The translations under genes and the position numbers were made by a program. 64,000 nt of DNA, taken from the IMG/VR virus record IMGVR_UViG_2687453461_000002; one strand, given 5' to 3'. Each line of letters starts with the position of its first letter. Positions within the stretch are counted from its first letter, which is position 1. This document shows, in pieces, positions 43,524 through 60,570 of this stretch. The DNA is from a virus (lineage: Duplodnaviria > Caudoviricetes). Below the pieces are notes generated by a model, which searched no databases, was not told where the DNA came from, and saw only the letters and a list, made by a program, of their open reading frames with translations.

Positions 43524-44138
43524 TCAGGCAATGGACTTCAACGGCCGGGTCGAAGCGATTAACTGCTCAGCCTTACGCCTCAACTCCCCTGCCCGCGCTT
43601 CAACCTGACGGCACTGCTTCGCAAACGCCGGCAGGAGCGGCAGGTCTTCCTCGCTCATCACCTGGTCGTCAAAAACCTCGCTGCCAGTGTCGATAACGTC
43701 ACCGAGGGCGCGAACCAATGCACCAAAGCTCTTGTTCGCACATTGCTGGCTCTGCATCTGACGAGCACCTATCAAGCCGTGACGGCTGGCGAGCTCGTTG
43801 ATGCAGTGGTCGCGGAATTCAGGCTCCAAGGCGTTCACCCACGACTCTTCAAGCCAGGAAGGCATGTCTTGATCGCCGGACAACCAGCGCTGAACACGCT
43901 TTAGCCAGCGCCCGGTTGCCTTCACGAACTCACTGACATCGTTGTGCTCAGTGAGCGCGGCGAAGTCAGGAACCTCTTTGGCGATCGCTTTCTCCGGACA
44001 CGACAGATGCAGTTCGCGGCTCAGCGCTTGGGCGAAGTGGTCCTGGCTCATGCTGGTTCGGGCAATCTGATTTGCGGCGTGCGCGACCAGCACTTGGTCA
44101 CGGGTTTGGGCGCTATGTCTTGGACTGGACGTTTCCAT
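43524..44138 (-). CDS. CII-position regulator
   Basis: directly downstream of cro. Confidence 0.55.
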   Translation of the reverse strand: METSSPRHSAQTRDQVLVAHAANQIARTSMSQDHFAQALSRELHLSCPEKAIAKEVPDFAALTEHNDVSEFVKATGRWLKRVQRWLSGDQDMPSWLEESWVNALEPEFRDHCINELASRHGLIGARQMQSQQCANKSFGALVRALGDVIDTGSEVFDDQVMSEEDLPLLPAFAKQCRQVEARAGELRRKAEQLIASTRPLKSIA

Positions 44139-44192
44139 GGGGACTACTCTCTTCTAATCTGGAATTACTGAGGAGACGGACGGGGTAGTCGC

Positions 44193-44414
44193 TCAAGCGA
44201 CCATCTCGCCCCAGGGAAACGAAGGGCAAAGCTGCCCCCTCTTAACTTCGCCACCTGTAAGCGCCTCGATTTGAAGCGCCCTTGCTGCCGGAACGGGCCG
44301 ATCTCCCGAACACCACTGGCTTACAGTCGGGGTTCGAACATCAAGACGGCTGGCCAGCGCTGTTTGGCTGCCCAAAATCCCGGCTGCCTTCCGAACCGCT
44401 TCTGCTGGTGTCAT
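44193..44414 (-). CDS. cro: Cro-like repressor
   Basis: GSQTALASRLDVRTPTVSQW HTH, divergent from cI. Confidence 0.85.
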   Translation of the reverse strand: MTPAEAVRKAAGILGSQTALASRLDVRTPTVSQWCSGDRPVPAARALQIEALTGGEVKRGQLCPSFPWGEMVA

Positions 44415-44446
44415 GGGTTTTCTCCGGTTTGTCATGCGCCAAATAT

Positions 44447-44517
44447 AAGGCAATAGCTAATCACTAACAAGCCATTGCCTACTCGGCAACGGACTAGGCT
44501 TAATTAGGCAATGCTTA
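44447..44517. promoter_or_regulatory. oR operators (three 13-bp sites)
   Basis: AAGGCAATAGCTA 44447-44459, AAGCCATTGCCTA 44469-44481, TAGGCAATGCTTA 44505-44517. Confidence 0.75.
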
Positions 44518-45272
44518 CAGGAATAGAATTAGGCGCAGCCATCGAGCGAGCTCGGGTCGCCAAAGGCGTTACAAAGAAAAAGCTCGCCGAAGATTTCGGC
44601 GTGGCGGGCCCCTCTGTCCAAGGCTGGGTAAAGACGGGGCGAATCGACAAATCTAAGCTCATGGAGCTGATTGAGTATTTCTCAGATGTCGTTTCCCCTG
44701 CGCACTGGGGGCTGAGCGAGCGTATGGGGGATATTCTGAGCGTCGCTGAAGCTCCAGCCGCCTATGACTCTTCACCAAAGGCTAGCGTCAAGCTTTCCAA
44801 CATCGAGACCTGGGATGACGCAACTCCGCTCCCTGAAGACGAGGTCTACGTCCCATTCCTGCGCGAAGTAGAGCTTGCAGCTGGCTCTGGCCGGTTTGTG
44901 ATCGAGGAAAGCGACACCGCCAAGCTGCGCTTCTTCAAGAGCGATCTGCGCCGCAACAACGTGCAGTTCAGTAATGCCAAGTGCGTGATCGCCCGCGGCA
45001 ATAGCATGTTCCCAGTGCTGCGCGATGGCGCCACGGTCGGCGTGAACACTGGAAAGAACTCGCTTGGCGATATCGTCGATGGCGACCTCTACGCGATCAA
45101 CCACAATGGCCAGCTACGCGTGAAGCAGGTTTACCGCCTGCCCACCGGCCTGCGTCTGCGCAGCTTCAACCGCGACGAACACCCAGATGAGGACTACACG
45201 TTCCAGGAGATCAAAGAGCAGCAGATCTCAATCCTGGGCCATGTGTTCTGGTGGGGGATGTTCGCTCGGTAA
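44511..45272 (+). CDS. cI: CI repressor (HTH + S24 peptidase)
   Basis: N-terminal HTH, LAAG cleavage site, GNSM, VKQ. Confidence 0.92.
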   Translation: MLTGIELGAAIERARVAKGVTKKKLAEDFGVAGPSVQGWVKTGRIDKSKLMELIEYFSDVVSPAHWGLSERMGDILSVAEAPAAYDSSPKASVKLSNIETWDDATPLPEDEVYVPFLREVELAAGSGRFVIEESDTAKLRFFKSDLRRNNVQFSNAKCVIARGNSMFPVLRDGATVGVNTGKNSLGDIVDGDLYAINHNGQLRVKQVYRLPTGLRLRSFNRDEHPDEDYTFQEIKEQQISILGHVFWWGMFAR

Positions 45273-45295
45273 CAGCGTGATTTTTCAGGGAGGAG

Positions 45296-45679
45296 ATGAT
45301 GGAGTCCGGCGAACGGAAATGCCCGCATTGCGCGGAGCAGATCAAGCAAGATGCCGTGAAGTGCAAACATTGCGGGTCGGATGTTACCAATCCGCCAAAG
45401 TCAAAAGACCAGAAAGCGAGATCGACGCAAAAAATTGCGCTGTTCTGGCTTGTGATTGTAATTGGCGCCTATACGGTTATCTCCAAGAATATCGGATCGA
45501 GCTCGGCCGAGCCCACTGAAGAAGAGTACTCCCGCCAGGCGATTGATCTGTGCTGGAAGAATGTGGACGACAAGCTTGCCGATCTCGATGCCAGAAGAGC
45601 AATGAGAGACGCTTGCATGCGAATGACAAAGGCACACGGCCAGAAATACGGCAGTGCTGCTGGCATGCGAACAGAGTGA
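45296..45679 (+). CDS. zinc-ribbon membrane protein
   Basis: CPHC..CKHC followed by a TM; GGAGG RBS. Confidence 0.75.
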   Translation: MMESGERKCPHCAEQIKQDAVKCKHCGSDVTNPPKSKDQKARSTQKIALFWLVIVIGAYTVISKNIGSSSAEPTEEEYSRQAIDLCWKNVDDKLADLDARRAMRDACMRMTKAHGQKYGSAAGMRTE

Positions 45680-45707
45680 CATCTCCAATGGCCGCCAGGA
45701 GCTGCCT

Positions 45708-45953
45708 ATGCCCCTCACCAAACCGAACCAGCAGCTGCGGCGCGACCTGAAAGAGGCTGCAGCCCTGCTCAAATGGTCAGGCGTCGACATCATGCAGGTG
45801 GCTACCCGTCTTTCTGAAGCTGGCCTTGAGGATGATGCGCAGAACCTGATGAAGATCGCGGTGAGCTTTCAGGAAGCTGAGGACAAGCTGGCAGGTTATG
45901 CGGAAGAAGTGAGGGTGAGGCAGATAAAACGAGACGCGAGCGATCACGGATGA
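45708..45953 (+). CDS. hypothetical protein
   Basis: AGGAG RBS; MPLTKPNQQL. Confidence 0.65.
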   Translation: MPLTKPNQQLRRDLKEAAALLKWSGVDIMQVATRLSEAGLEDDAQNLMKIAVSFQEAEDKLAGYAEEVRVRQIKRDASDHG

Positions 45954-46168
45954 CTCAATGGCGCAATCAGAGCTTCTGGAGCAAGGTTGGGGTCATTGCT
46001 TGCCTGGCTTTTCTTATCATGATCCCCGGCTACTCCGACGCTGCCGGGCTGGGCGGAGGCTCATCCGGTCGCAAGCGCGTGTTCAGCCCAGGATTCGTTG
46101 CGCTTTGCGTTTTCGTGGTCGTGGCTGAGCTGATTGCGCTGAACCATTTTTATGGTGCGCGCGAGTGA
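45950..46168 (+). CDS. small two-TM protein
   Basis: ATGA overlap with the upstream gene. Confidence 0.6.
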   Translation: MTQWRNQSFWSKVGVIACLAFLIMIPGYSDAAGLGGGSSGRKRVFSPGFVALCVFVVVAELIALNHFYGARE

Positions 46169-46281
46169 GGTGAAAGCGGAATAGTTAAAAGCAAGCCCGT
46201 ATACCCACCAATCATTGACTGATCCAGCAGTTCCACCAGGTCCGCCATGAGCGGGCTTTTTCATGCCTAATCGAAAATAAT

Positions 46282-46323
46282 TAGGCATTACCTATTTACA
46301 TAAAATTAGCCTATGCCTAATAT
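46282..46323 (+). promoter_or_regulatory. pL promoter with oL operators
   Basis: TTTACA-N17-TAATAT overlapped by TAGGCATTACCTA (46282-46294) and TAGCCTATGCCTA (46307-46319). Confidence 0.8.
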
Positions 46324-46352
46324 TAATCCCAAGCCAACGCAACACCGGCCCA

Positions 46353-46381
46353 GCAGCGAAAGCCGCACCGCTCTTTAACAA
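46353..46381 (+). promoter_or_regulatory. boxA with preceding GAAA hairpin
   Basis: CGCTCTTTAACAA at 46369-46381. Confidence 0.7.
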
Positions 46382-46906
46382 CCTGCGCAACACAGAAACA
46401 CCAACAGACCGCATTGCCTCTACCGGCGACCGGCGATCAGACGGGTCAGATAGCCCGCCAACGACAGGAACAACCTGTGCGGCTGATCGAGAGCGAAACG
46501 CTCGAACCGTGCGAACGACCTGGCATGCAATGCGCCCCGCGAATCCCAGCGGCAGAAGGGAGATTCAACTGAACAGAATTAGCGCCCCGAGCTTCGGCAT
46601 TGAGGGGCGCCGGACCTCATGCACCCTGCCCCACTCAGCCGGGCATTCAGAGCTGTAGCGTGCATGTTGTAAGGACCTGTGAACCGCGGCGAACAGATGC
46701 TGTTTGACGCTGCGCGGAGGAAGCTCGAAGCCCCCACCGACGAAGATCGGACAGCCCTGCAATCAGCAGCGGGTAACTGGCCAACATCGCTGACGCAACA
46801 ACCCCGGTCTGACGCCAGTAGCGGGACCGGGGCACTTTGGAAAGCATCACTAAGCAGTCTTCTCGCGAGGACTGCTTGGGATGACAACCACTTGGAAATA
46901 AATTGC

Positions 46907-47758
46907 ATGGCCAAGTCTTTCAAGCAAATGATCAAAGACGGGGATCTGAAGCGGGCTGACGCGATGAAGGCCCGCCTGGAAGATCTACACGAAGAACCCG
47001 GCTTCAACCTTCGGGCCGAAGGTGAAGAGCTGGAAGAAAGCATCAACGCACTCGCTGAGTTCATCTTCGCCGGCGGCCAGATCCCCGCGCTTGAAGTGCG
47101 ACCTCGCGCCGAAGGTGGGATGTGGGTTGTCGATGGCCACCGCCGTCGCCGCGCCTACTTGAAGCTGGATCAGGCAGGTCGCCTTCCAAGAGTGCCGAGC
47201 AAGGACGACCCAGAGCGCCTGGAGGCGTGGATCTCGATTGTTCCTTTCGAGGGCAACGACGCCGAACGGGTAGCAAGGGTCATCACCAGCCAGGAAGGAA
47301 AGAAGCTCTCTCCTCTTGAGCTGGCAGATGGCTACAAGCGGCTCACCGCATTTGGCTGGACGCCTGATCAGATCGCCAAGAAGGTCGGCAAAACACGTCA
47401 GCACGTTGAGCAAGTGATGACACTCGGCAATGCCAACACAGACGTTCAACAGCTTGTTGCATCGGGCCAAGTGTCCGCTACAACTGCGGTGCAGGTGGTG
47501 CGGCAGCATGGCGAGGAAGCAGGCAAAGTGCTTGGTGGCGAGCTGCAAAAGGCCAAGGCGACCGGCAAGTCCAAGGTGACCGCAGGATCGATGCGCGGCC
47601 CTACAACTTCCCGTCAACGGCTCGAAGCGATACGTGTAGCAGCACAGGAAATCTTCAAAGCAATGCCTGATGGCTACCTGAATAGTTCAGGGCCAGAGGT
47701 CAGCCTCCCCACAGCACTGCTCCTCAAGCTCCAGCGGGCGGTTAGCGAAGCAACCTAG
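46907..47758 (+). CDS. ParB/Srx N-terminal domain protein
   Basis: GFNLR, VVDGHRR, LSPLELA, HTH. Confidence 0.8.
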   Translation: MAKSFKQMIKDGDLKRADAMKARLEDLHEEPGFNLRAEGEELEESINALAEFIFAGGQIPALEVRPRAEGGMWVVDGHRRRRAYLKLDQAGRLPRVPSKDDPERLEAWISIVPFEGNDAERVARVITSQEGKKLSPLELADGYKRLTAFGWTPDQIAKKVGKTRQHVEQVMTLGNANTDVQQLVASGQVSATTAVQVVRQHGEEAGKVLGGELQKAKATGKSKVTAGSMRGPTTSRQRLEAIRVAAQEIFKAMPDGYLNSSGPEVSLPTALLLKLQRAVSEAT

Positions 47759-47889
47759 CAATTCAATTGCATCCCCGCGCCGGTTCTTCTGAACAACCAG
47801 CGCCACGTCAGCGTGACGTCAACTGCCCGATCCCTGGTGCTCACGGGCACCAGGGCGCATGGGAAATCTCCTTGTGAGCCATAAAGTGA

Positions 47890-48126
47890 TCAATCGTCCC
47901 TGTCATCACGATCGCGATTGTGGTCACGCCATCGATCACCATCTCGGCGGTCATGCCTGTGGTAATAACCCTGATCGTTGTCATTGCCCTGGTCATATCT
48001 CCGATCGTGATCATAGCCCCTGTAACGATCACGACCGTATCCTCCTCCATCGTCCCAGACAGGCACGCAACCTCCCAACAAGAGGGAGCCTGATAGAGCC
48101 AAAAGAACGATTGCTGCGCGCTTCAT
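47890..48126 (-). CDS. small lipoprotein with D/R/H-rich low-complexity tail
   Basis: lipobox LGGC. Confidence 0.65.
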   Translation of the reverse strand: MKRAAIVLLALSGSLLLGGCVPVWDDGGGYGRDRYRGYDHDRRYDQGNDNDQGYYHRHDRRDGDRWRDHNRDRDDRDD

Positions 48127-48316
48127 TTTGAATGTCCTGAAAGCCAGTAAGGGCAGGATATTTGACTGCAAATAAGTTCAGAAATTCATTGGCGAAAAGC
48201 AAATCTCGCCACCTCCGACACCACCCGCATGCACTCCCCTCCGCGCCCATCGGCAACCAGCGGAGCGGATGAGTGCAGCCGAGTTTTGTTGGGTCAACCA
48301 AACACTGGAGGTCGCC

Positions 48317-48595
48317 ATGCATCACTGTACCGATACCCAAGCAGTCTGCCGTGGCTGCGGGCTGAAGCTTCGCGGCTCGCCATCATGGAAAGGCGGCCTC
48401 GCTTATCATCCTGAGCCTAAAGGCGAGATCCACCAATGCCACTACGGCGGCTGGGTCTGCTCGCGACGCTGTGATATCCGCGCCTGCGTCGAGCTGGAAG
48501 GAACGATGCCAGGCTGCGGTGGCGTGAACGGCTATGAGCGGCTGTCCACCTACGCAAAAGAGAGCATTGATCGCCACTGGCCGGAGGCAGCATGA
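48317..48595 (+). CDS. Cys-rich phage protein
   Basis: GGAGG RBS; CRGC, CSRRC. Confidence 0.65.
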   Translation: MHHCTDTQAVCRGCGLKLRGSPSWKGGLAYHPEPKGEIHQCHYGGWVCSRRCDIRACVELEGTMPGCGGVNGYERLSTYAKESIDRHWPEAA

Positions 48596-49014
48596 ACACT
48601 GCAATGCAGATATGCCAGACCCGGTATGACGCCAGGCTGCCTCCAGAGTCGGTTGATACCGAGGAGGCTGAGCGGATCTGGGTCGACAACGCGGCCTGTG
48701 ACCTGCTGGACGGGCAAGACGTAATGTTCCAGCGCCGCATGCGCAGTACTCAGGGCGTAACGCATGACCAATTCGCGCAGGCTGTCGATGAATACGTGAT
48801 GAATCATCTCTGCGAGCCCGGAATGGGCGCCACAGTGATCGGTCGTTTGATCTTGGCTGCGCACCGTAGAGACGTGTCAGAAGCCCGCAGCGCCGCATTT
48901 GAGGCGCTGGATAGCCAAGACCCTGACGAAACCCTGCGCGATATTGCACGCACCCTCCTTCGCCCTCTTGCTGCTGATGGCCTGATTGCCCAGGCCGAGG
49001 ACAATGAGCTGTGA
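48592..49014 (+). CDS. hypothetical phage protein
   Basis: coupled early-gene chain. Confidence 0.7.
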   Translation: MNTAMQICQTRYDARLPPESVDTEEAERIWVDNAACDLLDGQDVMFQRRMRSTQGVTHDQFAQAVDEYVMNHLCEPGMGATVIGRLILAAHRRDVSEARSAAFEALDSQDPDETLRDIARTLLRPLAADGLIAQAEDNEL

Positions 49015-49202
49015 GCCCTCACATTCTCATCGACCAAGCCCTCGAAGGCGTTGCCGATCCCAACAGCCAGCCCGACATCGATGTCCTGGTGCAAGGCCTG
49101 ATCACCCGCCTGTTCACTGACGGTGCAATCACCACCGACGAATTCACCCACTACTGCAAGCGCCTGATGGAAGCCTGTCACCGGCGCAAGGAGGCAGAAT
49201 GA
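49011..49202 (+). CDS. hypothetical phage protein
   Basis: coupled early-gene chain. Confidence 0.65.
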   Translation: MSPHILIDQALEGVADPNSQPDIDVLVQGLITRLFTDGAITTDEFTHYCKRLMEACHRRKEAE

Positions 49203-49396
49203 CCACTTCCCCAGTCAAGTCGCTCATCGAGGAGCAACTGGAAGACATCACCGCTCACAACCTGCGTGATGCCTACAGCCTGGCCGAGCGCCGGGGCTTT
49301 TTCGGACCGCCGGTTGAGCAGTATGCGGAGCCAGGTTACCGCGGTCGGGTGCTGCAGGTTCTTCGCTATCGCGTGGCCCAACTGGAGCGGCGGTAA
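49199..49396 (+). CDS. hypothetical phage protein
   Basis: coupled early-gene chain. Confidence 0.6.
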   Translation: MTTSPVKSLIEEQLEDITAHNLRDAYSLAERRGFFGPPVEQYAEPGYRGRVLQVLRYRVAQLERR

Positions 49397-49680
49397 TGAG
49401 CGGCGCCGGCGCACACAAGCGTGGTCAGCAGCTGGCGATCCGCTGCGCGAAACTCCGACGCGAAGGCCTGTCACTTTCAGAAGTGGCCCAGGCCGCTGGT
49501 ATCAAGAAGGAGCAGGCCAACGCCAAGATCACCCTGGGCGAGCGCCTGTTATCGCTGGAGGAATCGCCATGATCCCCGTTATCGCAATCGTCTGGTTCGC
49601 CTGCGTCTATCTGAGATAGATGCCGCAGCATCCTCTCGCCGAATTTTACAGCGCCTCCTCTGACGGCGCGGAGAACAATC

Positions 49681-50412
49681 ATGTCCAACACCCGGATCTG
49701 GGACCAGGTCAACGTTACCGACCCCGGCGCAACAAAAAACTTCACAGGCATGGGCGGCTTCAAAGGCACCGCCATCAAGCCCACATATCTGATGCACAAG
49801 GCAACCGAAGTATTCGGCCCTTGTGGCGAGGGGTGGGGCTGGTCAGTGCTTGAAGATCGTTTCGACGAAGGCGGCCCACTCCAAGCCCCCACCAAGGAAT
49901 GGCCGGACGCGCCGCGCATCAATGCCAAGTTGCACACGCTGAAAATTGAGCTGTGGTATCTGGGCAAGGATGGGCAGAAATGCACGATCCAGCACTACGG
50001 CCACACGCCGTTTGTGTACTTCCAGAGCGGAAAGATCATGACCGACTGGGAGGCGGCTAAGAAGTCGCTCACTGACGCTGTAGGCAAGTGCCTGCAACCC
50101 CTCGGTTTCTCTGCCGATATTCACATGGGCTTGTTTGACGACGCCGCGTATGTCGATGCGGTTCGAGATGAGGTCGCTCTCGAAAAAGCTGAAAACAGGG
50201 TTGAAGAGGAAGAGCGTCAGAAGCAGGAGCGACTCGACTACATCAAATCGGCGATTGACAACCTGAAAGCCGCGCAGACCCCTCACGAACGCAAGAAAAT
50301 CCACGACATCGCAGTCCGCCAGTTGACTCTGCGCAAGGACGAAAAAGGCGCGGCACGAATCTCACTTGAATGGAAAAAGCTTTCTGATCCGAAGCAGGAG
50401 ACAGCGGCATGA
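49681..50412 (+). CDS. single-strand annealing protein (Rad52/Sak-like, putative)
   Basis: ATEVFGPCGEGWG, AAKKSLTDAVGK..LGFSADI. Confidence 0.65.
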   Translation: MSNTRIWDQVNVTDPGATKNFTGMGGFKGTAIKPTYLMHKATEVFGPCGEGWGWSVLEDRFDEGGPLQAPTKEWPDAPRINAKLHTLKIELWYLGKDGQKCTIQHYGHTPFVYFQSGKIMTDWEAAKKSLTDAVGKCLQPLGFSADIHMGLFDDAAYVDAVRDEVALEKAENRVEEEERQKQERLDYIKSAIDNLKAAQTPHERKKIHDIAVRQLTLRKDEKGAARISLEWKKLSDPKQETAA

Positions 50413-50972
50413 CTCAGCTCTACGCTTTGACCAGTCAGATGACCGAGCTCGCCGCTCTTGCGGATACCGACGATGAAGGATTGCGTCAGGCCATCCAGGA
50501 CACCATGGACAGCATTCAGGGCGAGTTCGAGGTGAAGGCTGAGAGCGTCGTCATGCTGTGCCGCAACATCCAGGGCGACATCGATGCCATCGACAAGGAA
50601 GTCGACCGCCTTAACGAGCTGAAACGCATCAGGAAGAACACCGTCGGCAAGCTCGACGAATACCTGCGCCGCAACATGGAGGCCGCCGACATCAAGTCGA
50701 TTAAGCGGCCGCTGTTCACCATCACCCTGGCCCTGGCGCCAGAGAAGGTGATCGTCGACAAGGAAAACGACATCCCGTACGACTTCCTCGACACGAAGAC
50801 CGTGTTCTCGCCAGACAAGCGCGCCATCGCCGCCAAGCTTAAGGAAATCCGCGAGCATAACGCCGCGGTACGCAAGCGCCTGGATGCCGGCGAGGACGCG
50901 GAAGCCGAGCTACTCGAGGAACCATCCTGGGCACACCTAGAGCGCGGCGAAAGCTCGATTCGCATCAAGTGA
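50409..50972 (+). CDS. Siphovirus Gp157 family protein
   Basis: LYAL N-terminus, IDKEVDRL, PDKRAI, SIRIK. Confidence 0.85.
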   Translation: MTQLYALTSQMTELAALADTDDEGLRQAIQDTMDSIQGEFEVKAESVVMLCRNIQGDIDAIDKEVDRLNELKRIRKNTVGKLDEYLRRNMEAADIKSIKRPLFTITLALAPEKVIVDKENDIPYDFLDTKTVFSPDKRAIAAKLKEIREHNAAVRKRLDAGEDAEAELLEEPSWAHLERGESSIRIK

Positions 50973-51200
50973 GGTAAGCATGAGCAACTACATCCTGGTC
51001 CGCTCCGAGCGCCAGGCCGAACTGGAGGCAGCTAAGGCTGCCTTCTTCATATCTGGCAACAAGGTCCAGGTGCTGGAGTCCTTAACGTGGCGCGGATATT
51101 TCGGAATGAAAGCTTGGCCGAGCTGAAGCGGAACCCAGGCGATGAGGTAACTGCCCCGGCCTGGAGAGCGCGTGAGGGAAAGTCAAAAAAATCCATGTTC

Positions 51201-51344
51201 CTATTTCTTCGGCTCCGGTTTGGACGGAGGCGACTTTGGGGGGGTTGCCGGCAGCATGTTTCGAACAGGTTCGTTGTTAACGCTTTCTTGCGCCACAACG
51301 ACCTTACCTGAGGCAAACGCTTTCTTTAGCTCTTCTTCAGTCAT
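51201..51344 (-). CDS. 47-aa Pro-rich peptide B
   Basis: hand translation MTEEELKKAFASGKVVVAQESVNNEPVRNMLPATPPKSPPSKPEPKK. Confidence 0.6.
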   Translation of the reverse strand: MTEEELKKAFASGKVVVAQESVNNEPVRNMLPATPPKSPPSKPEPKK

Positions 51345-51372
51345 GTTCTCGTCCAAAAAATGATCAGCTGCT

Positions 51373-51516
51373 TTATCCGCGAGCCGGTGGCTTTGGCGGA
51401 GTAGATGGGGGAGTTTTCGGCAAGATATTCCTTGGCATCACCGGATTAACGTTTAACCCCTCGTTGATACTCTTGCGAATTTGCTCTTCAACAACTTTCT
51501 GTTTGTCGCTAGTCAT
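51373..51516 (-). CDS. 47-aa Pro-rich peptide A
   Basis: hand translation MTSDKQKVVEEQIRKSINEGLNVNPVMPRNILPKTPPSTPPKPPARG; GAGGA RBS; overlaps the upstream stop. Confidence 0.65.
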   Translation of the reverse strand: MTSDKQKVVEEQIRKSINEGLNVNPVMPRNILPKTPPSTPPKPPARG

Positions 51517-52120
51517 CTTCCTCATCCTTCACTGGCTCAAGAAACTCAGTCCACTGGACATCAACTCCAGACACAAGCATAAAGGACACGCCTTCCGCCG
51601 GTACAAATTGGTCGTTTTCGATCCAAGTAGGAAACTGCATCAAGTAGTGGCCTTTCTCAGGATCAGTAGGCCATGATCGCGGGTATCCCGCAAGCCGACG
51701 ACCGTCAAGTAGCTGCAGCACAATGGATCGATCCTTCAACGTTCTGTGCGCAAAACGCCAGTCAGAGCCATCAGCGGACCTGTGTGTGAGCCCCATCTTT
51801 CGAGCAACCCGGTACAAAATATCATTGTTACCCAAATACGCTAAAAGCAATCCAAATGCCACAGCGAGGCACGCACTGCATATCGCAGAGGATTTTTCTG
51901 TCCAAACTCCCAGGGAATAAAACTCCCCCACCATGAGTGCAAATGCTTGTATGTAACTAGCCAAGAACTGAATGATCGCAGTTCCGATCAACGCTTGAAT
52001 GACTCGCTCAAATTGCCCCGGCTTCTGAGAGTCAGACAGCCAATAGAATATGAATGTTGCCAAGAATCCAGGTAGAACTACCTGAAGAAACGGCACGGCC
52101 TTGCCAAAAAAATCTTCCAT
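51509..52120 (-). CDS. DUF6338-like membrane protein
   Basis: LPGFLA N-terminal TM, three TMs, W..LQLLDGRRLAGYP..W..YL. Confidence 0.75.
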   Translation of the reverse strand: MEDFFGKAVPFLQVVLPGFLATFIFYWLSDSQKPGQFERVIQALIGTAIIQFLASYIQAFALMVGEFYSLGVWTEKSSAICSACLAVAFGLLLAYLGNNDILYRVARKMGLTHRSADGSDWRFAHRTLKDRSIVLQLLDGRRLAGYPRSWPTDPEKGHYLMQFPTWIENDQFVPAEGVSFMLVSGVDVQWTEFLEPVKDEEDD

Positions 52121-52238
52121 TTTAAATAGTCATTTCCACCGTTTAATCCTCACTACTGCTCCACCCTTGGTTAAGCGCAGTCCAAGAAACGCAATATCTG
52201 TCATTTCACATAATCACGCTAGCCCGCGAGGCCCTCCT

Positions 52239-52352
52239 ATGACCGCACATCAGAAGAAACACCCCTTCGATTTCAAAGCCTAATACGCACTTGGCTGCAA
52301 CCCTCAGGACAATGAGATCGTAGTCGACTTCTTTTGCAGTGGCGGCGCAGGA
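52239..52352 (+). pseudogene. DNA cytosine methyltransferase 5' remnant
   Basis: MTAHQKKHPFDFKA*YALGCNPQDNEIVVDFFCSGG (motif I-like), then truncated. Confidence 0.65.
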
Positions 52353-52508
52353 TGCCGCCTAGGGAGCTACCGGCGAGAAGTTCGGATACGGCGCTACTGG
52401 ACACCAGGAGCGGCTGAAGGCTGAACGAGCCAGGCTTGCGCCAGAGGTGCGCAAGCACGCTGAGAATGGGCTTGATCCAGCCCAGATAGGCGCCGCAATG
52501 TCCATGCG

Positions 52509-52899
52509 CGTGCAGCGCGTCTTGATGATCGCTACAGAGAACAACATCGTTATCAGGGGAAGGCCGTGAAGGCAGAGAAGACTGGTGCGGCGAAGCATTC
52601 AGCTGACTACCGCGACCGCAAGAAGGCCGAGGCTGATCGCCTGGGCATCGAGAAGATGCACTTCGATATGCCAGCGGGGATTCGCAAGCAGCTTGCTGCT
52701 GAGCTGAAGGCTCACGGTTACAGCCAGGCACAAGAACCCTGGCAGGACTTGGCTCTGTCGTGGATTGCCCAGGAACCAGATGAGCGAGCGCGTCGACTTC
52801 AAAGACCTGACGCGCCAGCTTTTCGCATATCACCAAGACTTGCGCGTCAGTTCAACGAAGCAAGCGAGGCTGAATTGAAGCGATACCCAGAGTGCGAGG
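52509..52899 (+). repeat. scaffold repeat copy 1 (gene X, ORF 52566-52919)
   Basis: near-identical to 55899-56270 (..HFDMPAGIRKQLAAE..). Confidence 0.9.
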
Positions 52900-53349
52900 T
52901 CATACTCCCGAATTGCTAACGCCAAGTACTCGCCGAACAATTGCGGAGAGAACCTTGTATTCGCGCATGTCGTCGGTGTTTGGCAGGGCAGCTTCACCAT
53001 CGGCAGTGTAGATGGTGCCATTGTGTGCTACGTGGAACGTTCCTACGAGAACCTCTTTCTCCGGAGCAAATTCCTTAACAGCTACCCGAGCTTCGAGCAG
53101 CGCCTCGCCTCCCCGATACAACATCGTCGAGTAGATGCGGAATGGCTTCCCGGATACATTTCCGGACACGAGCGCGCCATCTTCTTCGCGCTCGAAGGTT
53201 ACTTGGCCGTTAAAGTGCCTATGGCCTAAGTCATTCCAGAACTCGATGAGCTCGACATATCGATCCGTGGCGCGCCTGTAGCCATAAGCGGCACGAGAAA
53301 CCAGAGTCTGCAGCTCGTTAACGTCCTCATCAAAATCCGATTTTTTCAC
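52900..53349 (-). CDS. hypothetical cargo protein
   Basis: GGAG RBS, GTG start, 149 aa. Confidence 0.7.
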   Translation of the reverse strand: MKKSDFDEDVNELQTLVSRAAYGYRRATDRYVELIEFWNDLGHRHFNGQVTFEREEDGALVSGNVSGKPFRIYSTMLYRGGEALLEARVAVKEFAPEKEVLVGTFHVAHNGTIYTADGEAALPNTDDMREYKVLSAIVRRVLGVSNSGV

Positions 53350-53464
53350 CGAAATACTCCATCTAAACCGGGCGGATTGCCCTGCACTGGTCTACCTCAA
53401 AAAACACCAAATTGCCACCATGCCGCCGCCAGCACGGAGGGCGGCGCATGCATGGAGATAAGCC

Positions 53465-53869
53465 ATGAGCAACTACAACTGCGACTACGTTCGCCGCCAT
53501 TACGACGTGCCGGCCGAGATCGGGCGCCGAGTGATCGCCAACGGCGAGCCCGGCGTGATCATGGCCGACCGCGGCCACTACATAGGCGTCATCCTCGACG
53601 GCGACCTGAAGAAGCGCATAAGGAACTACCATCCGACCTGGGAAATGCAGTACGGCGAGATGGCCGAGGCGCTCCCCCTCAAAGAGTGGCTGGTCCTACC
53701 CTTCAATCATGATTGGGACGACCTCAACTGGAGCCGAGAGGCCCGAGAAGATTTGGTAAGGGTCTGAGCGGCTACTAGAGGTCAGGCCAAGTACAAAGCC
53801 TATAAGCGACTTCAAGACTACTGCCACAGCATCAAGGCGATGCTCCACTTCAAAGTCCGGCGCGCCTGA
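53465..53869 (+). pseudogene. phage early protein with internal TGA
   Basis: frame continues past TGA 53765-53767 (probably TGG) to 53869. Confidence 0.6.
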
Positions 53870-53899
53870 CCCGCCCTCAGCTGTTGCGCGGAGCCTGGC

Positions 53900-54475
53900 T
53901 TAAAGATCGGCAGCCCTGATTACGTCGGTCCCGCCACTATATTCATCTGTAAATGAAGATGCTCCCGCCAGAGCTTTTTCGGCGGCATCGCTCAGTCCGC
54001 ACAAAGATTTGTAGTTTCCATCTGACAGCCCCCCATCACTGGATATATTCTCTAAAACTTTGAGCATTCGATTCGCGGACAAGGCAATGTTTTGGACATC
54101 CCTGGCGACCAACGCTCCAGGAAGTTCATAAATAGGCAGCCTAGAAATCCATAACACTGCAGCCTCAAGAGCGTCCCTATGGCGGGACGCACTCTCTTCC
54201 AAAAGGATGTCTGGCATTTTCCTGGCGGTCTCAATCACACGCTTCGCGACAATCTCAGCCACTTCAACTGTGGCTCTGAGCGACGCAATTCGTTGAAGTC
54301 TGGATTCTTCCGCCTGCTGGTTAACCTGAGCTCGAAACAGCTTTTGAGATTGATGCCCTTGCCACCAAGCAACGCCTATGGCGACAAACAACGCAAAAAT
54401 CGATCCAACCGATTGAACCCATGACGCTAATCCTGGATGACTCTCCATCCAGCACGAAAGCAGCTCACAACTCAT
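53900..54475 (-). CDS. hypothetical cargo protein with N-terminal TM
   Basis: GGAGG RBS; HPGLASWVQSVGSIFALFVAI. Confidence 0.75.
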   Translation of the reverse strand: MSCELLSCWMESHPGLASWVQSVGSIFALFVAIGVAWWQGHQSQKLFRAQVNQQAEESRLQRIASLRATVEVAEIVAKRVIETARKMPDILLEESASRHRDALEAAVLWISRLPIYELPGALVARDVQNIALSANRMLKVLENISSDGGLSDGNYKSLCGLSDAAEKALAGASSFTDEYSGGTDVIRAADL

Positions 54476-54576
54476 TAAGCCTCCTGGCTCCGGCTCCATG
54501 CCGGGCCGAGCACCAATACCCCAATCCAATCAATCACGCCACTCTGGCAAGGCCAGAGGCTGCACCGAGATACCCC

Positions 54577-54935
54577 ATGAGCACCTTTGCAGTGTTTAGA
54601 ATGACCTTCGATATAGCCAAGACTGGGGCACGCAAGAAAACTGCCGGTGCCCTGAAGAACGCCAAAGTCCCTGGCGACGTCGAGCCGCTCCCCAAAGCTG
54701 ATTGATCGCCAAGCACACCGAGAAGATCATGGAGGGTACGGTTCGCCAGCTCTCGCGGATTTTCTACGCGCCGCAGTATGCCGAGCAGTTCATTGAACTA
54801 CCCCACAAGCCTGGGAAATGTCGTGATATGCAGATCAAGACGAAAGCTGTGCTGGTTGACGCCAAGAGCAAGCCGATCAGCTGGCTGGAAACCACTTTGG
54901 CTACTTGGCAAAACCGAAATGAAGGGGCAGGATAA
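54577..54935 (+). pseudogene. gene Z copy 1, disrupted
   Basis: MSTFAVF..APQYAEQFIEL homologous to 58098-58482 but split across frames. Confidence 0.75.
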
Positions 54936-54966
54936 TGGCTAGTTGCCATGAACCAGGGAAGAAGAC

Positions 54967-55845
54967 ATGCAATATGCTCTGTGCAGAAATGACGGCAGAA
55001 CTTGGGAAGCTTTTGCATTTTCAAAGCTAGGGGATTCGGAGTTAAGCAGTAAACGAAACGATCTTATCTGTACAATGTGCGGAGCGCTGGCATGGTTCCG
55101 AAAGGAAAGCACCCACGGCCACCCCGCCCACTTTTGCGCCCATCACAGCAGCGAATGCGATTTAAAAGCAGAATATGTGGTGGTCGATCAGGACAAGGGA
55201 GATGGTTCTGAAGCTGTAGATATGCTTAAAAGCAGTGGCGATATAATAGTGCGCCTCGACAAAGAGAAGGGTGGTGATATCGATGTAGCGCCGCCATCAG
55301 AGCTTCCAAACGGTCCGGCCTCACAAGATGGAAGATCCTACGTAGTAAAAGGTGGAAATAGATTTTCAAGTCAAGAGTTTACTTTACGTCGAATCTTGCA
55401 TCGGCTGGTACAAAGCCCTGACTTTCGGAACTCCTCCGCAAAATTAACTTTTTTCAAAAAAGGTGATGAGCCTTATATCTCGGGTTGCGTGAGAGATATT
55501 ACCCGTGCTTTCAGCGAAATCTCAAAGGAAGAGGAAAGTGAAGCCCCCATGTTCTACTGGGGCCCAATCACCAGTGTAAAAAAAACGCCAGATGGAAAAA
55601 TCTGGTTAAATTCCGCCCCAGAATATCAATCAGTCAGCGTTGCAATATTCCCAGATATTGCTGATGAGTTTATAAAAAACTTTAATATTGATGAGTTAGA
55701 TGACCTAGCTGGCGCACACATCCTCGTATCTGGAAAATGTTATTTCACCGGAAAACAACAATCAAAACCTATAATATGGTGTGGGGCAGTAAATCAAATT
55801 GTAATTCGACGCTACCGAGCCGCCACCTTACAAACAGCCGGCTAA
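54967..55845 (+). CDS. hypothetical low-GC protein with Zn-binding N-terminus
   Basis: CTMC..HFCAHH..C; 292 aa. Confidence 0.75.
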   Translation: MQYALCRNDGRTWEAFAFSKLGDSELSSKRNDLICTMCGALAWFRKESTHGHPAHFCAHHSSECDLKAEYVVVDQDKGDGSEAVDMLKSSGDIIVRLDKEKGGDIDVAPPSELPNGPASQDGRSYVVKGGNRFSSQEFTLRRILHRLVQSPDFRNSSAKLTFFKKGDEPYISGCVRDITRAFSEISKEEESEAPMFYWGPITSVKKTPDGKIWLNSAPEYQSVSVAIFPDIADEFIKNFNIDELDDLAGAHILVSGKCYFTGKQQSKPIIWCGAVNQIVIRRYRAATLQTAG

Positions 55846-55898
55846 CACAAAACGCAAGCCGGGCAACCATCGGGCGCCCGGCACACTTCGTCGATACG

Positions 55899-56270
55899 TG
55901 TGCAGCGCGTCTTGATGATCGCTGCAGAGAACAACATCCAGATTGAGGGTGTACCGGAGCGGCTAAGCATTCCGCTGACTACCGCGACAGGAAGAAAGCC
56001 GAGGCCGATCGCCTGGGCATCGAGAAGATGCACTTCGATATGCCAGCAGGGATTCGCAAGCAACTTGCAGCTGAGGTGAAAGCTCACGGCTACAGCCAGG
56101 TGCAAGAGCTGTGGCAGGACCTGGCTCTATCATGGATTGCGCAGGACGCAGAGGAGCGAGCGCGTCGACTTCGAAAACCTGACGCGCCAGCTTTTTCAGA
56201 TATCGCCAGAGCTTGCGCGTCAGTTCAAAGCGACCAGCATGGCCGAGCCGAAACGCGATCCTGACAACAA
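55899..56270 (+). repeat. scaffold repeat copy 2 (gene X, degenerate)
   Basis: homologous to 52509-52899; frame change near the 3' end. Confidence 0.9.
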
Positions 56271-56274
56271 GTGA

Positions 56275-56559
56275 TCACTCCCTCATAACCTTGTGTGTCA
56301 TGTGAGCACAGTAGCTGCACATGCCGCCGTTTTGTTTGGCCTCATATTTTTCAGACCACGGTATTTCGCACCCTCGAATACATCGGCCTGGGTCATGCTT
56401 TTCAAGCACGTAGCGATCAAACACTTTCTGTTGCTCAGGCGTTAGGGGTTTATCGTCGAGAAAGAGTCTTGCGACCCCCTCCTCGGCTCCCTGCAAATAG
56501 CCTGCCTCCAGCAACTCGCCAACGTAAGCGCTCAGGCCATCGTCTTCTTCAAACGACAT
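56275..56559 (-). CDS. small Cys-containing cargo protein
   Basis: GGAGG RBS; CIRGC..CSYC. Confidence 0.7.
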   Translation of the reverse strand: MSFEEDDGLSAYVGELLEAGYLQGAEEGVARLFLDDKPLTPEQQKVFDRYVLEKHDPGRCIRGCEIPWSEKYEAKQNGGMCSYCAHMTHKVMRE

Positions 56560-56668
56560 ACGCACCTCCCCGCCGGCCTCATGCCGGTAATTCGTAATAC
56601 CCCATCCCAACCCAAATTGCCACCATGCCGCCACCAGCACGGAGGGCGGCGCATGCATGGAGAAAGGC

Positions 56669-57427
56669 ATGAACGACGAACAACGCCATCAGGAATGGAT
56701 CGCTAAGCGCAAAGCTGAAGAAGCCAAGCGCCGTGAGCGTGCCGCGGAGTGCCTGAAGGATCACCAGTACACAGTCCTGGCCGATACCGATCAACTGAAG
56801 GCCTGGCGCTGCAAAGCCCCTGGAACCAACTGCTACGCCTTCGACATCCTCATCACGCGCTTCGGTATCGCTACTGTCGGCGACATCGACGGCTTGACCT
56901 TCAGTGTTGGCCTGTCCTACGGCATCGAGTTTTTGGCCGGTGACGACATCGGCTACTACATCCACTCGAAGCTGGAGCGGAACTGTCGGGAGCGCGAATT
57001 CGACGAGGGTGCCTTCCGCTCCGCCCTGGTGACTGGCGCGTGCAACAGGATATGTGAACACGTCGACCAGGATGAGCGCGGCGAGCTGCCCGAGTGGGTA
57101 CGCAACGATGGCGGCCGTTACGAAGCCGCCCGCTGGAGCGAGCTACGGGAGCTGGTCGAAGAGAAGCTGAAACCGCTTGAGTTTGGCGAGGACGGGTATG
57201 ACTTCTGGGATGAACTGAATGATCGTCTGTACGAGGCCGATCACGTCGAATCCATCGAACAGGCGGGCCTGCTCATGAACGAGCACTACGAAGAGTTGGG
57301 CCTGGGCTGCGACTACTGGGAAATCAGCATCGATAAACCGCGCGACAGCCTGATCAACCGGTTGCATCTAATCAACCATGCCGCCAAGGCGATTGTCGCT
57401 CAGCAGTCCCAAGCGAAAGCCACCTGA
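56669..57427 (+). CDS. hypothetical phage early protein
   Basis: GGAG RBS; 252 aa. Confidence 0.7.
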   Translation: MNDEQRHQEWIAKRKAEEAKRRERAAECLKDHQYTVLADTDQLKAWRCKAPGTNCYAFDILITRFGIATVGDIDGLTFSVGLSYGIEFLAGDDIGYYIHSKLERNCREREFDEGAFRSALVTGACNRICEHVDQDERGELPEWVRNDGGRYEAARWSELRELVEEKLKPLEFGEDGYDFWDELNDRLYEADHVESIEQAGLLMNEHYEELGLGCDYWEISIDKPRDSLINRLHLINHAAKAIVAQQSQAKAT

Positions 57428-57482
57428 CCCTTCCGCGTTGCCCGCCAGCGTATTTCCGTAATCCGAAGATCATAACTTGGCA

Positions 57483-57995
57483 CTATTCTGCCTCCGAGAC
57501 CTTACGCCGCGCGGCAAATTTCGCCCTCCAGTGTTCATAGAATGACTCTACGCAGCGACGTCGACCTAGGTCAATGAGTGCTGCCTCCAACGCCTCAGCC
57601 TTAGGTAATGCTTTTGCCACGTACAGATGAGCATCGTGCGAAGAGCCTTCCTCTAGCAACCAGAAGAGCTCCTTCTGAAGTTCAAACCAACAGTCCTGGA
57701 TCTCCAGAGTGTCGCCCTCTTTGAACAGAATTTGCAGGAATACCATGTCGCGCTCTAGCTCATAGCGTGCAACCGGCCAGTTTTCGGATAGCACCTTCTT
57801 TTCATACGCAGTCAAACCATGAATTTCATATTCGTTGGCCTGGCTTTGTAAAAATCGGACAAGTAGGTTTGCCCGGACGAGAGCTTGACCCGTTTTGTCA
57901 TAGCGCTCAGCCCAAAGCTTTTCATGCTTTGTCTTGAGCACAGCTGAATAAGCTGCAACGGCCGCAGCAATAAGGGTCAGCATCGTTGTAAGCAT
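57483..57995 (-). CDS. hypothetical cargo protein with N-terminal TM
   Basis: GGGAG RBS; 170 aa. Confidence 0.7.
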   Translation of the reverse strand: MLTTMLTLIAAAVAAYSAVLKTKHEKLWAERYDKTGQALVRANLLVRFLQSQANEYEIHGLTAYEKKVLSENWPVARYELERDMVFLQILFKEGDTLEIQDCWFELQKELFWLLEEGSSHDAHLYVAKALPKAEALEAALIDLGRRRCVESFYEHWRAKFAARRKVSEAE

Positions 57996-58097
57996 CAGAA
58001 CTCCCTGGATAGGCTCAGTCTCGAGCCGCTCACATTTACCTCACTTCAACGAATCACGCCAGCCAGGCCAAGGCCATCGGCTGCCCGGAGGAGCCTC

Positions 58098-58482
58098 ATG
58101 AGCACATTCGCAGTCTTCGGCATGACAGCCGGTGTAGCGCTGGCTGAGGCCAGGAAGATCACCAAGACCACCAGGCCAAGCGGAAAGCCTGGCGCCCCCC
58201 CTGGAACGGACACTCGCTGAGTGGAACGAGGCCGTGGAAAAGCAGGCAGCGGCCATATTCGACGGCGAGAAGGTAAAGCAGCTCAGCCAGCTGTTCGATG
58301 CGCCTCAGTACGCGCAGCAGTTCATAGAGCTAGCCAGGAAAGCCGGCCCATGCCGAGATCTGCGGATCAGGGCAAAGGCCGTGCTGACAGATGCCGAGGG
58401 TGAGCCAGTGATCAACCCCAAGACCAAGGCGCCGATGATTGGCTGGGCCGACTGGCATCCATCAACCACGAAAGTCGCATAA
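58098..58482 (+). pseudogene. gene Z copy 2, frameshifted in a C7 tract
   Basis: removing one C at 58195-58201 joins MSTFAVFGMT.. to ORF 58234-58482. Confidence 0.7.
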
Positions 58483-58486
58483 CTCA

Positions 58487-58588
58487 TCACCAAGGCAAGC
58501 CTGCCAGTAGCGACCACAGCCAGACTAGAAGCTCAAACAGAGCCTCTGCCAGTACTTGAATCAGGATCTCTTCAATCAGTCGTTTCAT
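58487..58588 (-). CDS. 33-aa hydrophobic peptide (type I toxin-like)
   Basis: AGAGGAG RBS; MKRLIEEILIQVLAEALFELLVWLWSLLAGLPW. Confidence 0.6.
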   Translation of the reverse strand: MKRLIEEILIQVLAEALFELLVWLWSLLAGLPW

Positions 58589-58744
58589 GCAGACAGCTCC
58601 TCTTTAGATGAGGAAATTGTGCTGATCGAGGCCTGATGATTCCTCTTGGGGTTTTTCCAAGCAGCATCCCGCAACTTCACCGCGCGTCACGACAAATCAC
58701 GAATCAATTACCGCCCGTCAGATAGACGACTCGGAGGCCTCCCC

Positions 58745-59494
58745 ATGCCCACAGAAACCCAACACCTGGAGCAGCGAGTAGCTGCCCTTCAGTCAGATCT
58801 CAACGCCAGGGACCAAGCCCTGGGCGACGCAGAAACAGAGAACAACGAGCGCGAGCTGTCGAGGCGTGACTGGTTCGAGGAGGCGCAGAGGCTGCAAGCT
58901 GAGCTGCATGAATTATCCGGAAAATGGGAGCGCTTCGAAGAGTTCGAACATGGATTGCAAGCCAAGCTGGCCGAGCGGGATGCGCTGCTGCAGCAGGGTC
59001 TGGCAATGATCAATCGCGGCATCGTCAGCTTTGACGACCAGGTCGAGTACAGGCAGAAGCTCACCGCCCTATCCGCCAGCGCAGTGCCGGGCGCCAAGCC
59101 CCAGGCCGAGCCTGTGTACATGGTCCGAACGCATGGCTCGTGCTGCTGGGAAGAAGTCGGCAGTGGGTCACTGGAGGATTTCCAGTCCATGCCGGAGGAG
59201 TACGAGTTGCGCGCTCTCTACACCCGCCCAGCCGAGCAGCCCGAACCTATCAGCTCAACGAGTGACAAGTACAAGGCCGAGCTGTACGACGAGGTTTGGC
59301 AGCTGGCCCGCGACATGGGCTTTGGCAACGTCACCGATGCGCTGATGAAGCTGAACAAGCAGACCGCGCCGGTTGCGGTGGTGCTGCCTGAGCGCATTGA
59401 CGAGTCGATATGTCGAGGGCACTCCCTTACCCTGGCTATCAAGTGGAACCGCTGCCTCGACGAAGTAGCACGTCTCAACCCTCCCCAGCAGTAA
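58745..59494 (+). CDS. mosaic phage early protein
   Basis: GGAGG RBS; MPTE start, ends VVLPER..WNRCLDEVARLN. Confidence 0.7.
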   Translation: MPTETQHLEQRVAALQSDLNARDQALGDAETENNERELSRRDWFEEAQRLQAELHELSGKWERFEEFEHGLQAKLAERDALLQQGLAMINRGIVSFDDQVEYRQKLTALSASAVPGAKPQAEPVYMVRTHGSCCWEEVGSGSLEDFQSMPEEYELRALYTRPAEQPEPISSTSDKYKAELYDEVWQLARDMGFGNVTDALMKLNKQTAPVAVVLPERIDESICRGHSLTLAIKWNRCLDEVARLNPPQQ

Positions 59495-59496
59495 CC

Positions 59497-59727
59497 CTAC
59501 GGCAACTGGCTGTTGATCCAACGCTCAGCTGCAGCAATAGCTTCCTCCAGAGCAGCTTGGTAGCTCTCCCATGGGCCCTGAAGCTCTGCTGCAACATCCC
59601 CAAGGCCCGCAACGTCGCCCACTTGGATGACTCGCGCAGCTGCAGGAGCTTCGTCGTTCGGCCGCTCCCATTCAAACTTGATGAAAACCGTATATCCACG
59701 GTGCTCGTATGCAATCGTAGAATCCAT
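59497..59727 (-). CDS. small hypothetical cargo protein
   Basis: antisense ORF between early genes. Confidence 0.6.
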   Translation of the reverse strand: MDSTIAYEHRGYTVFIKFEWERPNDEAPAAARVIQVGDVAGLGDVAAELQGPWESYQAALEEAIAAAERWINSQLP

Positions 59728-59873
59728 GCTGTGCGGCACATCAGGTCCTTTACTGGAACAAAGTTGAACGGCTTTTTACACCTGTCAGCTTAGCCCGCTC
59801 AATCAAGGCAAGTTGCCACCACCCCCCCACCCCCACATTCAAGTCAGCCGCTATAGCGGCCAAGGACGAAGTC

Positions 59874-60509: not shown

Positions 60510-60570
60510 TCCTGCTCGCTCTCCCCGCGGTGCTTTTCATCACCTGGAACATCTACACGGGGCCAAGGCC

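Follow-up and report, generated by a model that had tools for sequence, protein, structure and literature searches.

Genes for proline-rich peptides are almost universal partners of DUF6338 membrane-protein genes

Introduction

Are two very short, proline-rich open reading frames (ORFs) lying directly behind a membrane-protein gene genuine genes, and, if so, what do they do together with the protein that precedes them? This question is raised by the virus record IMGVR_UViG_2687453461_000002 (IMG/VR; Caudoviricetes), a stretch of 64,000 nucleotides (nt) that we call here the window. In the window, two small ORFs (sORFs), encoding peptide A and peptide B, come after a gene of the DUF6338 family and share its strand. 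Comparing this locus with its relatives in bacterial genomes and viral contigs, we found that such peptides are conserved, specific, and almost universal partners of DUF6338 genes.

The original prediction, made from the sequence of the window, took the locus for a three-gene operon whose peptides would be ligands, substrates, or antidotes of the membrane protein, with a role in peptide-gated defense, toxin-antitoxin action, or signaling, and held that no described system has this layout. The latter claim was mistaken. The available text of a 2023 study on Pseudomonas stutzeri ATCC 14405 (PMC10433244, Anal Chem 2023) reports a predicted operon made of a DUF6338 gene and three novel Pro-rich proteins of <50 amino acids (aa). 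According to the same text, these proteins were detected by digest-free mass spectrometry with 44-114 peptide-spectrum matches and were abundant during ordinary growth in the cellular small-protein fraction; the DUF6338 membrane protein was not seen in the non-membrane fractions. As far as that text goes, the authors found no tBLASTn conservation beyond P. stutzeri, considered that the genes possibly arose de novo, and raised an antimicrobial role for the peptides. It is the only paper that we found to mention DUF6338, and we found none for PF19865, the Pfam model of the family.

On this description, the window locus adds a further case to a layout that has been reported a single time, for P. 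stutzeri in 2023. The two operons are likened by layout as described: in both, same-strand Pro-rich sORFs of less than about 50 aa stand directly downstream of the DUF6338 gene in different frames, with three peptides (SEP1, SEP2, and SEP5) in P. stutzeri and two, inside a prophage, in the window.

Results

The three-gene locus

The DUF6338 gene (51509-52120, minus strand) encodes a protein of 203 aa that matched PF19865 with an E-value of 2.5e-12 and 47.2 bits (cut-off 26.5) over profile positions 8-204 of 205, and the family assignment of the original prediction was thereby confirmed. Peptide A (51373-51516, minus strand) is basic and Pro-rich, with a central NVNP motif and a C-terminal polyproline motif. 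Peptide B (51201-51344, minus strand) is a diverged paralogue which keeps the C-terminal polyproline motif, differs in its N-terminal half, and has a weaker Shine-Dalgarno (SD) sequence. Both sORFs were found in the ORF listing and matched the peptide profile; their length of 47 aa is counted from internal ATGs, and the listing gives longer forms that begin with an ATG at 51525 and a TTG at 51356, respectively.

The TAG stop of the DUF6338 gene (51511-51509) is overlapped by 8 nt by the peptide A gene, whose ATG occupies 51516-51514. An SD-like purine run, AAGGA..GAGGAAG (51517-51529, minus strand), can be read from the sequence inside the last DUF6338 codons, with AAGGA 8 nt upstream of this ATG, and a gap of 28 nt separates the stop of peptide A from the start of peptide B. 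The two sORFs, the overlap, and the operon, with its same-strand and translationally coupled layout, were therefore all present as predicted. The sequence pattern said to be shared by the two peptides stood only in part: the peptides do align, with 37% identity across 35 residues (BLASTP E-value 0.003), but only if a gap of two residues is allowed.

When a profile built from the peptides of other loci was searched against the 6.9-Mb genome, only peptide A (E-value 5e-11) and peptide B (7.2e-9) were retrieved at E <= 0.01. Neither peptide had a match in Pfam, PHROGs, NCBIfam, or PADLOC, and the DUF6338 protein had none in PHROGs, NCBIfam, or PADLOC. A scan of 50900-52600 for promoters and terminators gave nothing above chance on the minus strand, and no terminator-like hairpin was found downstream of peptide B (RNA fold z 0.26). 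The junction between the DUF6338 and peptide A genes is spanned by a 379-nt contig of X11 (51389-51760) and a 225-nt contig of X15 (51394-51608), both about 96-97% alike to the window.

Pairing of DUF6338 genes and sORFs across genomes

A total of 153 DUF6338 homologues were found, and PF19865 was present in 119 of the 120 listed, with P0071, which has no precomputed Pfam domain, as the sole exception. The species-representative set included 43 loci from Pseudomonas, other Gamma-, Beta-, and Alphaproteobacteria, Planctomycetota, Nitrospira, Thermodesulfobacteriota, Spirochaetes, Bacteroidota, Acidobacteria, and candidate phyla. Loci were flagged automatically if they had an sORF of at least 30 aa, with at least 18% Pro and a start near the DUF6338 stop; 40 of the 42 loci examined were positive, after leaving out L044, which is cut by a contig end. 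Of the two others, L043 was positive on further check and L042 carries a truncated DUF6338 gene. Hence, in all the assessable loci (41/41, spanning at least nine phyla), a Pro-rich, SD-preceded sORF is present at the 3' end of the DUF6338 gene.

As a control, we applied strict criteria (ATG start, SD motif, and 30-80 aa) to the ends of all ORFs of at least 150 aa in the 43 loci. Positive ends were 36 out of 467, and all 36 were DUF6338 ends, with 0/431 among the other ends. The pairing between DUF6338 genes and sORFs is far beyond chance.

The same picture emerged from other samples. Within the genus Pseudomonas, a homologue was found in 62 of 400 other species genomes, and every locus read (29/29) had one to four Pro-rich sORFs. 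Among 46 loci on IMG/VR viral contigs, 40 were flagged automatically and five more were recognized by reading the frames; the last one, L114, is not assessable (its contig stops 2 nt past the DUF6338 stop), giving 45/45. In a Pseudomonadota sample, PF19865 matched in 16 of 400 other genomes, and of the 15 loci read, 10 were flagged automatically and the remaining five by reading. In one planctomycete plasmid record, the DUF6338 copy also has its sORF, which is absent from the gene table of the plasmid. No intact DUF6338 gene devoid of a peptide gene was seen among the assessable loci. The original prediction had named the neighborhoods of DUF6338 homologues as the place to look for such sORFs; there they proved conserved, and the proposed partnership stood, the pairing being nearly universal in genome loci, viral contigs, and Pseudomonas alike.

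The link also holds in the reverse direction: across 401 Pseudomonas genomes, 14 of the 15 places matching the peptide profile at E <= 1e-4 were directly downstream of a DUF6338 gene. The only strong orphan is a start-less peptide-gene relic in genome G148 (L121:2121-2270, plus strand; profile E-value 6.8e-8), which has a 280-aa ORF upstream of it and no DUF6338 ORF in its vicinity. Two weak places (G057 and G339, E-value about 5e-4) are not beside a DUF6338 gene, look like chance matches, and were discarded. Outside bacteria, PF19865 also matched above its cut-off in Haloferax volcanii, used as a control genome, and thus the family reaches archaea.

Evidence that the sORFs are genes

SD motifs precede the sORF starts; in the other loci, they have scores of 4-6 and are arranged as in the window. 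Of 114 loci, 80 have a first peptide whose start overlaps or directly adjoins the DUF6338 stop, and in 28 others the distance is at most 30 nt. Furthermore, the ratio of non-synonymous to synonymous differences (pN/pS) was 0.15, 0.15, and 0.26 in three orthologue groups, the last being the peptide type of the window (orthologues of peptide A occur in L075 and L078); in these groups, synonymous differences were about 0.72 per site, near saturation, and non-synonymous ones about 0.11. Judged from these sequence comparisons, the sORFs are translationally coupled to DUF6338 and under purifying selection.

A profile of 36 peptides matched 43 called proteins among 1.84 billion representatives. Fifteen of them were read: eight are full-length matches of 47-54 aa, three have the motif in longer proteins, and four are repeat artefacts. 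In the three longer proteins (P0147, P0157, and P0159), the central and C-terminal peptide motif, about 20 residues long, is found behind an N-terminal transmembrane (TM) helix in a 76-aa protein with a Cys-rich end, and at the C- or N-terminus of proteins of 92 and 151 aa. Such placement in TM-anchored or longer proteins is what would be expected of a short linear docking motif. The four artefacts (P0145, P0148, P0150, and P0156; 258-410 aa) were rejected as relatives: they are translations of repeat arrays in which one short unit recurs, probably CRISPR-like repeats called as genes. None of the 36 family members matched Pfam, no Pfam or NCBIfam model covers the peptide family, and the few members that have a name in their sources are called only "hypothetical protein".

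These data bear on the view that the sORFs are young or non-functional ORFs of de novo origin, as suggested for P. stutzeri. The lack of tBLASTn conservation stated in the available text of PMC10433244 speaks for it, and so does the low-complexity, fast-evolving nature of the peptides. Against this, position, strand, SD, and motif recur in at least nine phyla and at none of the 431 control ORF ends, the sORFs are under purifying selection, and the profile retrieves called proteins of full length. We give almost no credence to a de novo origin, which the comparative data refute, short of the conserved sORFs being untranslated everywhere; the pairing across at least nine phyla and the purifying selection contradict the inference of non-conservation and de novo origin in the published text as available.

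Arrays and properties of the peptides

Peptide genes occur in arrays of one to seven, with a single copy in most loci. The window has two copies, as does L075, its closest relative, whose membrane protein is 72% identical; three or four are found in several pseudomonads and five in L113. The largest array, on the IMG/VR contig L112 (5602-6460 and beyond), has seven tandem Pro-rich sORFs after one DUF6338 gene, six of which were in the first listing and one more at +842. Within an array, the paralogues vary in their N-terminal halves and have one C-terminal motif in common, in which a basic residue is followed by P-x-x-P-P, then by a proline run, and finally by a Lys-rich end; the central NVNP-type motif is usual in the first copy.

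We computed general properties on a set of 147 peptides, collected by an automated and imperfect chaining procedure. The median peptide has 46 aa, 26% Pro, and a net charge of +5, and 141 of the 147 are basic. No peptide in the set has a hydrophobic run of at least 15 residues of the kind found in TM segments or leaders, which makes secreted signaling by the peptides unlikely on sequence grounds. The partner family includes at least two sequence types, since the clade at the core of the Pfam family (L124-L132) has sORFs of 55-65 aa with a different though related motif, Gly/Ser-rich and conserved, around N-P-x-x-P-P; a third type is present in some pseudomonads (L058-L074).

Runs of at least three prolines are present in 126 of the 147 peptides, and of at least five in 54, and it could be argued that the sORFs act through their own translation: ribosomes stalling on polyproline in the absence of elongation factor P would sense translation capacity and tune the fate of the operon mRNA. 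We consider this very improbable, as the two peptides of the window have no run of three prolines, non-proline positions such as the central NVNP are conserved (pN/pS 0.15-0.26), the sORFs are downstream of the gene they would regulate, and, in the available account of P. stutzeri, the peptides accumulate as stable products.

Another possibility is that the peptides are the effectors, comparable to Pro-rich antimicrobials and active as bacteriocins or as intracellular inhibitors of translation, and that the membrane protein exports them, confers immunity, or serves as an anchor that sequesters them. Cationic, Pro-rich products of 40-50 aa encoded in tandem paralogous arrays of one to seven do resemble many bacteriocin precursors, and an antimicrobial role is the one raised by the authors of PMC10433244 in the text available. 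The peptides nevertheless have no leader or signal, and in that account of P. stutzeri they come from the cellular small-protein fraction. Bacteriocin clusters and those of ribosomally synthesized and post-translationally modified peptides combine leader peptides with a conserved modifying enzyme, protease, or transporter, and neither was found at DUF6338 loci. An effector role is thus improbable.

Predicted structure of the DUF6338 protein

A confident AlphaFold2 model was obtained from an alignment of 119 sequences (predicted local distance difference test [pLDDT] 88.6; predicted template modeling score [pTM] 0.68). The model has TM helices at residues 2-28, 36-65, and 75-98 and a short helix at 101-108, followed by a C-terminal domain with a helix at 120-127 and five or six strands between 133 and 193, and then by an acidic C-terminal tail. 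For the C-terminal domain, the best Foldseek match was 1i8f_G (E-value 1.4e-4, TMt 0.80), and the best VIA-align match was 1loj_A (Z 9.9, root-mean-square deviation 2.1 Å, 76 of 76 residues aligned); nearly all of the best 45 VIA-align rows are chains of the Sm/LSm/Hfq type. On the predicted model, the DUF6338 protein consists of three TM helices and an Sm/LSm-like beta-barrel, coherent with the small soluble beta-barrel that the original prediction had anticipated.

As in Sm/LSm/Hfq proteins (SmAP1, 1loj, and 1i8f), the modeled domain combines an N-terminal helix with a strongly bent five-stranded sheet. Unlike in them, the barrel is fused behind three TM helices, and a search with the family profile detected no sequence relationship to a solved structure. 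The conserved residues of the domain are W121, P147, W150, P151, W166, E192, and F193; besides these Trp and Pro positions and the Gly and acidic positions of the barrel, the best-conserved elements comprise a QFER motif where TM2 begins and LPGF in TM1. Sm proteins are not known to have such invariant Trp and Pro positions. The segment after TM3, as read from the sequence, is Arg/Lys-rich, which by the positive-inside rule would place the Sm-like domain in the cytoplasm; we infer an N-out/C-in topology. In the ESM Atlas, the closest cluster that does not belong to PF19865 has no name, and half of its members are viral (score 0.92); in BFVD, one match is a full-length uncharacterized siphovirus protein and the others are small Sm-like phage proteins.

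In mechanosensitive channels of the MscS type, which are heptameric, an Sm-like beta domain comes after three TM helices. The order of the parts is the same in DUF6338, with three TM helices and then an Sm-like barrel on the putative cytoplasmic side, although the C-terminal alpha/beta domain of MscS is missing. This raises the possibility of a toxin-antitoxin or abortive-infection pair, in which DUF6338 would oligomerize through its Sm-like domain into a ring with a TM pore held shut by the peptides, and loss of peptide supply would open the pore and kill or arrest the cell. Several observations agree with it: among the assessable loci, no intact membrane-protein gene was seen alone, the sORFs are coupled to it in translation, the module is a prophage moron (see below), Sm folds usually form rings, and the start-less relic of G148 fits a toxin that was lost first. 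MscS chains, on the other hand, are not among the listed Foldseek and VIA-align rows, which one domain fills, and no targeted comparison was made; there is no PADLOC model match, and polyproline peptides are in general poor candidates for labile antitoxins. Their abundance in P. stutzeri, as reported in the text available, would suit an antitoxin but equally any partner. Overall, we regard a toxin-antitoxin pair as rather unlikely.

Prophage context of the module

The window carries a Pseudomonas prophage, and the DUF6338 module is among its early genes. The arm holding the module (43524-62877), delimited by Pfam, PHROG, and tRNA matches, includes a CII-like gene (43524-44138, minus), a CI-like repressor (44511-45272, plus), a ParB-like gene (46679-47758, plus), a RAD52-like annealing/exonuclease gene (49681-50412, plus), a Gam-like Gp157 gene (50409-50972, plus), and an integrase (61596-62708, plus) adjoining a tRNA-Leu (62791-62877, minus). 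Other early genes of the prophage also match PHROGs.

The module is antisense to the plus-strand early genes around it, and its guanine-plus-cytosine (GC) content is lower (0.511 at 51001-52000, against 0.57-0.60 across the preceding two kilobases); together, these are the signature of a moron. A megablast search of 49600-53800 against GenBank phages returned matches for the flanking genes only, in two P. protegens phages. Two further ORFs lie on the opposite strand among the plus-strand early genes (52900-53349, minus, 149 aa; 53900-54529, minus, 209 aa). They have no Pfam, PHROG, or PADLOC match and may be further morons of the same accessory stretch. Islands of low GC (0.41-0.48, with a background of 0.55-0.63) are also present in the window at 3001-4000, 15001-17000, 38001-39000, and 55001-56000.

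The slots taken by the module differ among prophages: it is in the early-left arm in the window, among tail genes in L093, and, in L112-L118, in the nin/Q region that precedes holin and endolysin. Its place in L093 is on the opposite strand, with the lambda-like tail gene K (JAB/NlpC) on one side and I on the other; the clusters of these two tail genes comprise 13 loci each, 11 of them shared, with position and strand checked only in L093. Counted across prophages, these are at least three different moron slots.

No conserved third gene was found beside the module, either in genome loci or in viral contigs. In a survey of the 149 nearest neighbors at 42 cellular loci (six ORFs of L042 and L044 were left out), the neighbors were heterogeneous: most were housekeeping or assorted genes, two were integrases, and a few matched restriction-modification, ATPase, and cyclase families. 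The module is an autonomous, self-contained, and horizontally mobile cassette.

The module of L103 had no megablast match in Escherichia coli complete genomes. An ORF of at least 183 aa with a P-loop-like motif (L020:2332-2880, plus strand) comes after the peptide gene of Denitrificimonas caeni and may resemble KAP-type NTPases. In unrelated loci (L054, L089, and L105; L092 and L115), short conserved DNA stretches 3' of the peptide genes have similar translations; they are possibly tRNA genes, or else attachment sites at the ends of prophages.

Discussion

Considering all these data together, our tentative reading is that the module is a moron expressed by the lysogen, in which the peptides dock via their polyproline motif on the Sm-like domain and act on or through the membrane protein; we assign to it a probability of roughly 0.45. 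According to this reading, an inner-membrane DUF6338 protein would be made together with small polyproline proteins, and both the Sm-like domain and the peptides, which have no signal, would be cytoplasmic. SH3-like folds often bind polyproline ligands, and SH3, WW, and EVH1 domains recognize ligands in the polyproline-II conformation. By analogy, the peptides could dock as polyproline-II ligands on the Sm-like (SH3-like) barrel: the DUF6338 pair would likewise join a small beta-barrel with conserved aromatics to a ligand with a basic residue next to a P-x-x-P core, although the barrel is Sm-like and not a canonical SH3 domain. The nearly invariant Trp, Pro, and acidic residues of the barrel, with its acidic tail, would complement the basic peptides, and the variable N-terminal halves may be interchangeable adaptor or regulator parts that diversify the action of the complex.

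As for the benefit, the module would most plausibly serve the lysogen, through exclusion of, or defense against, other phages at the inner membrane. Prophage morons are known to encode inner-membrane superinfection-exclusion proteins, such as HK97 gp15, P22 SieA, and T4 Imm. The analogy would lie in a small membrane-protein gene that is independent, often antisense, and placed among tail, nin, or early genes. None of these three proteins has, to our knowledge, been described with coupled polyproline peptides, and we know of no homology between them and DUF6338.

Several points weigh against this reading. The defense role is weakly grounded: the 149 cellular neighbors include no dominant family and give no clear defense-island signal, and PADLOC-DB 2.0 returned no match at E <= 0.1 for any of the three proteins of the window. 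A tblastn search of two family members (from the window and L103) against 50,697 GenBank phage records also gave no match, so that the phage link rests on the prophages and on predicted viral contigs. As to docking, the assignment of the Sm-like fold rests on a predicted model, and the profile of 119 sequences found no solved relative (no Protein Data Bank chain at E <= 10). In the Pfam-core clade, a Gly/Pro motif replaces the long proline runs, and peptide sequences diverge strongly between clades, which makes a single common docking mode an assumption. A fusion between the two partners was not found either: the 120 listed homologues include 22 of at least 212 aa, and in none of these is the tail Pro-rich; instead, the frame of the membrane protein runs on over the peptide gene. 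A separate search for longer forms, which is weak evidence, gave none. Lastly, the X11 and X15 contigs that span the gene junction come from a set of four runs guessed to be RNA, two of which are probably DNA; no listed run is recorded as RNA, and contigs show neither transcripts nor strand.

A more far-reaching version of the docking idea, which we consider doubtful, is that DUF6338 proteins are membrane-anchored Sm-like polyproline receptors, an ancient bacterial counterpart of the SH3/PxxP pair. Phage-carried arrays of up to seven adaptors, with a single docking motif and diverse N-terminal halves, would then detect or obstruct what happens at the inner membrane, for instance the arrival of phage DNA or proteins, and the partners would be a missed family spanning phyla.

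Whatever the mechanism, this kind of module is much broader than reported. The Pro-rich peptides are constant partners of a widespread DUF and not a lineage-specific feature, being found from Pseudomonas to Planctomycetota, Nitrospira, Bacteroidota, and Acidobacteria, as well as in prophages. The published inference of a de novo origin is corrected, as far as the available text of PMC10433244 states it, and a conserved family is added to the catalogue of small proteins. In addition, DUF6338 gains a concrete predicted architecture, and the module behaves as a self-contained mobile cassette. A DUF thereby becomes a testable two-component system and, if the docking idea is true, it would represent a case of membrane-bound polyproline recognition in bacteria, with a likely role in the conflict between phages and their hosts.

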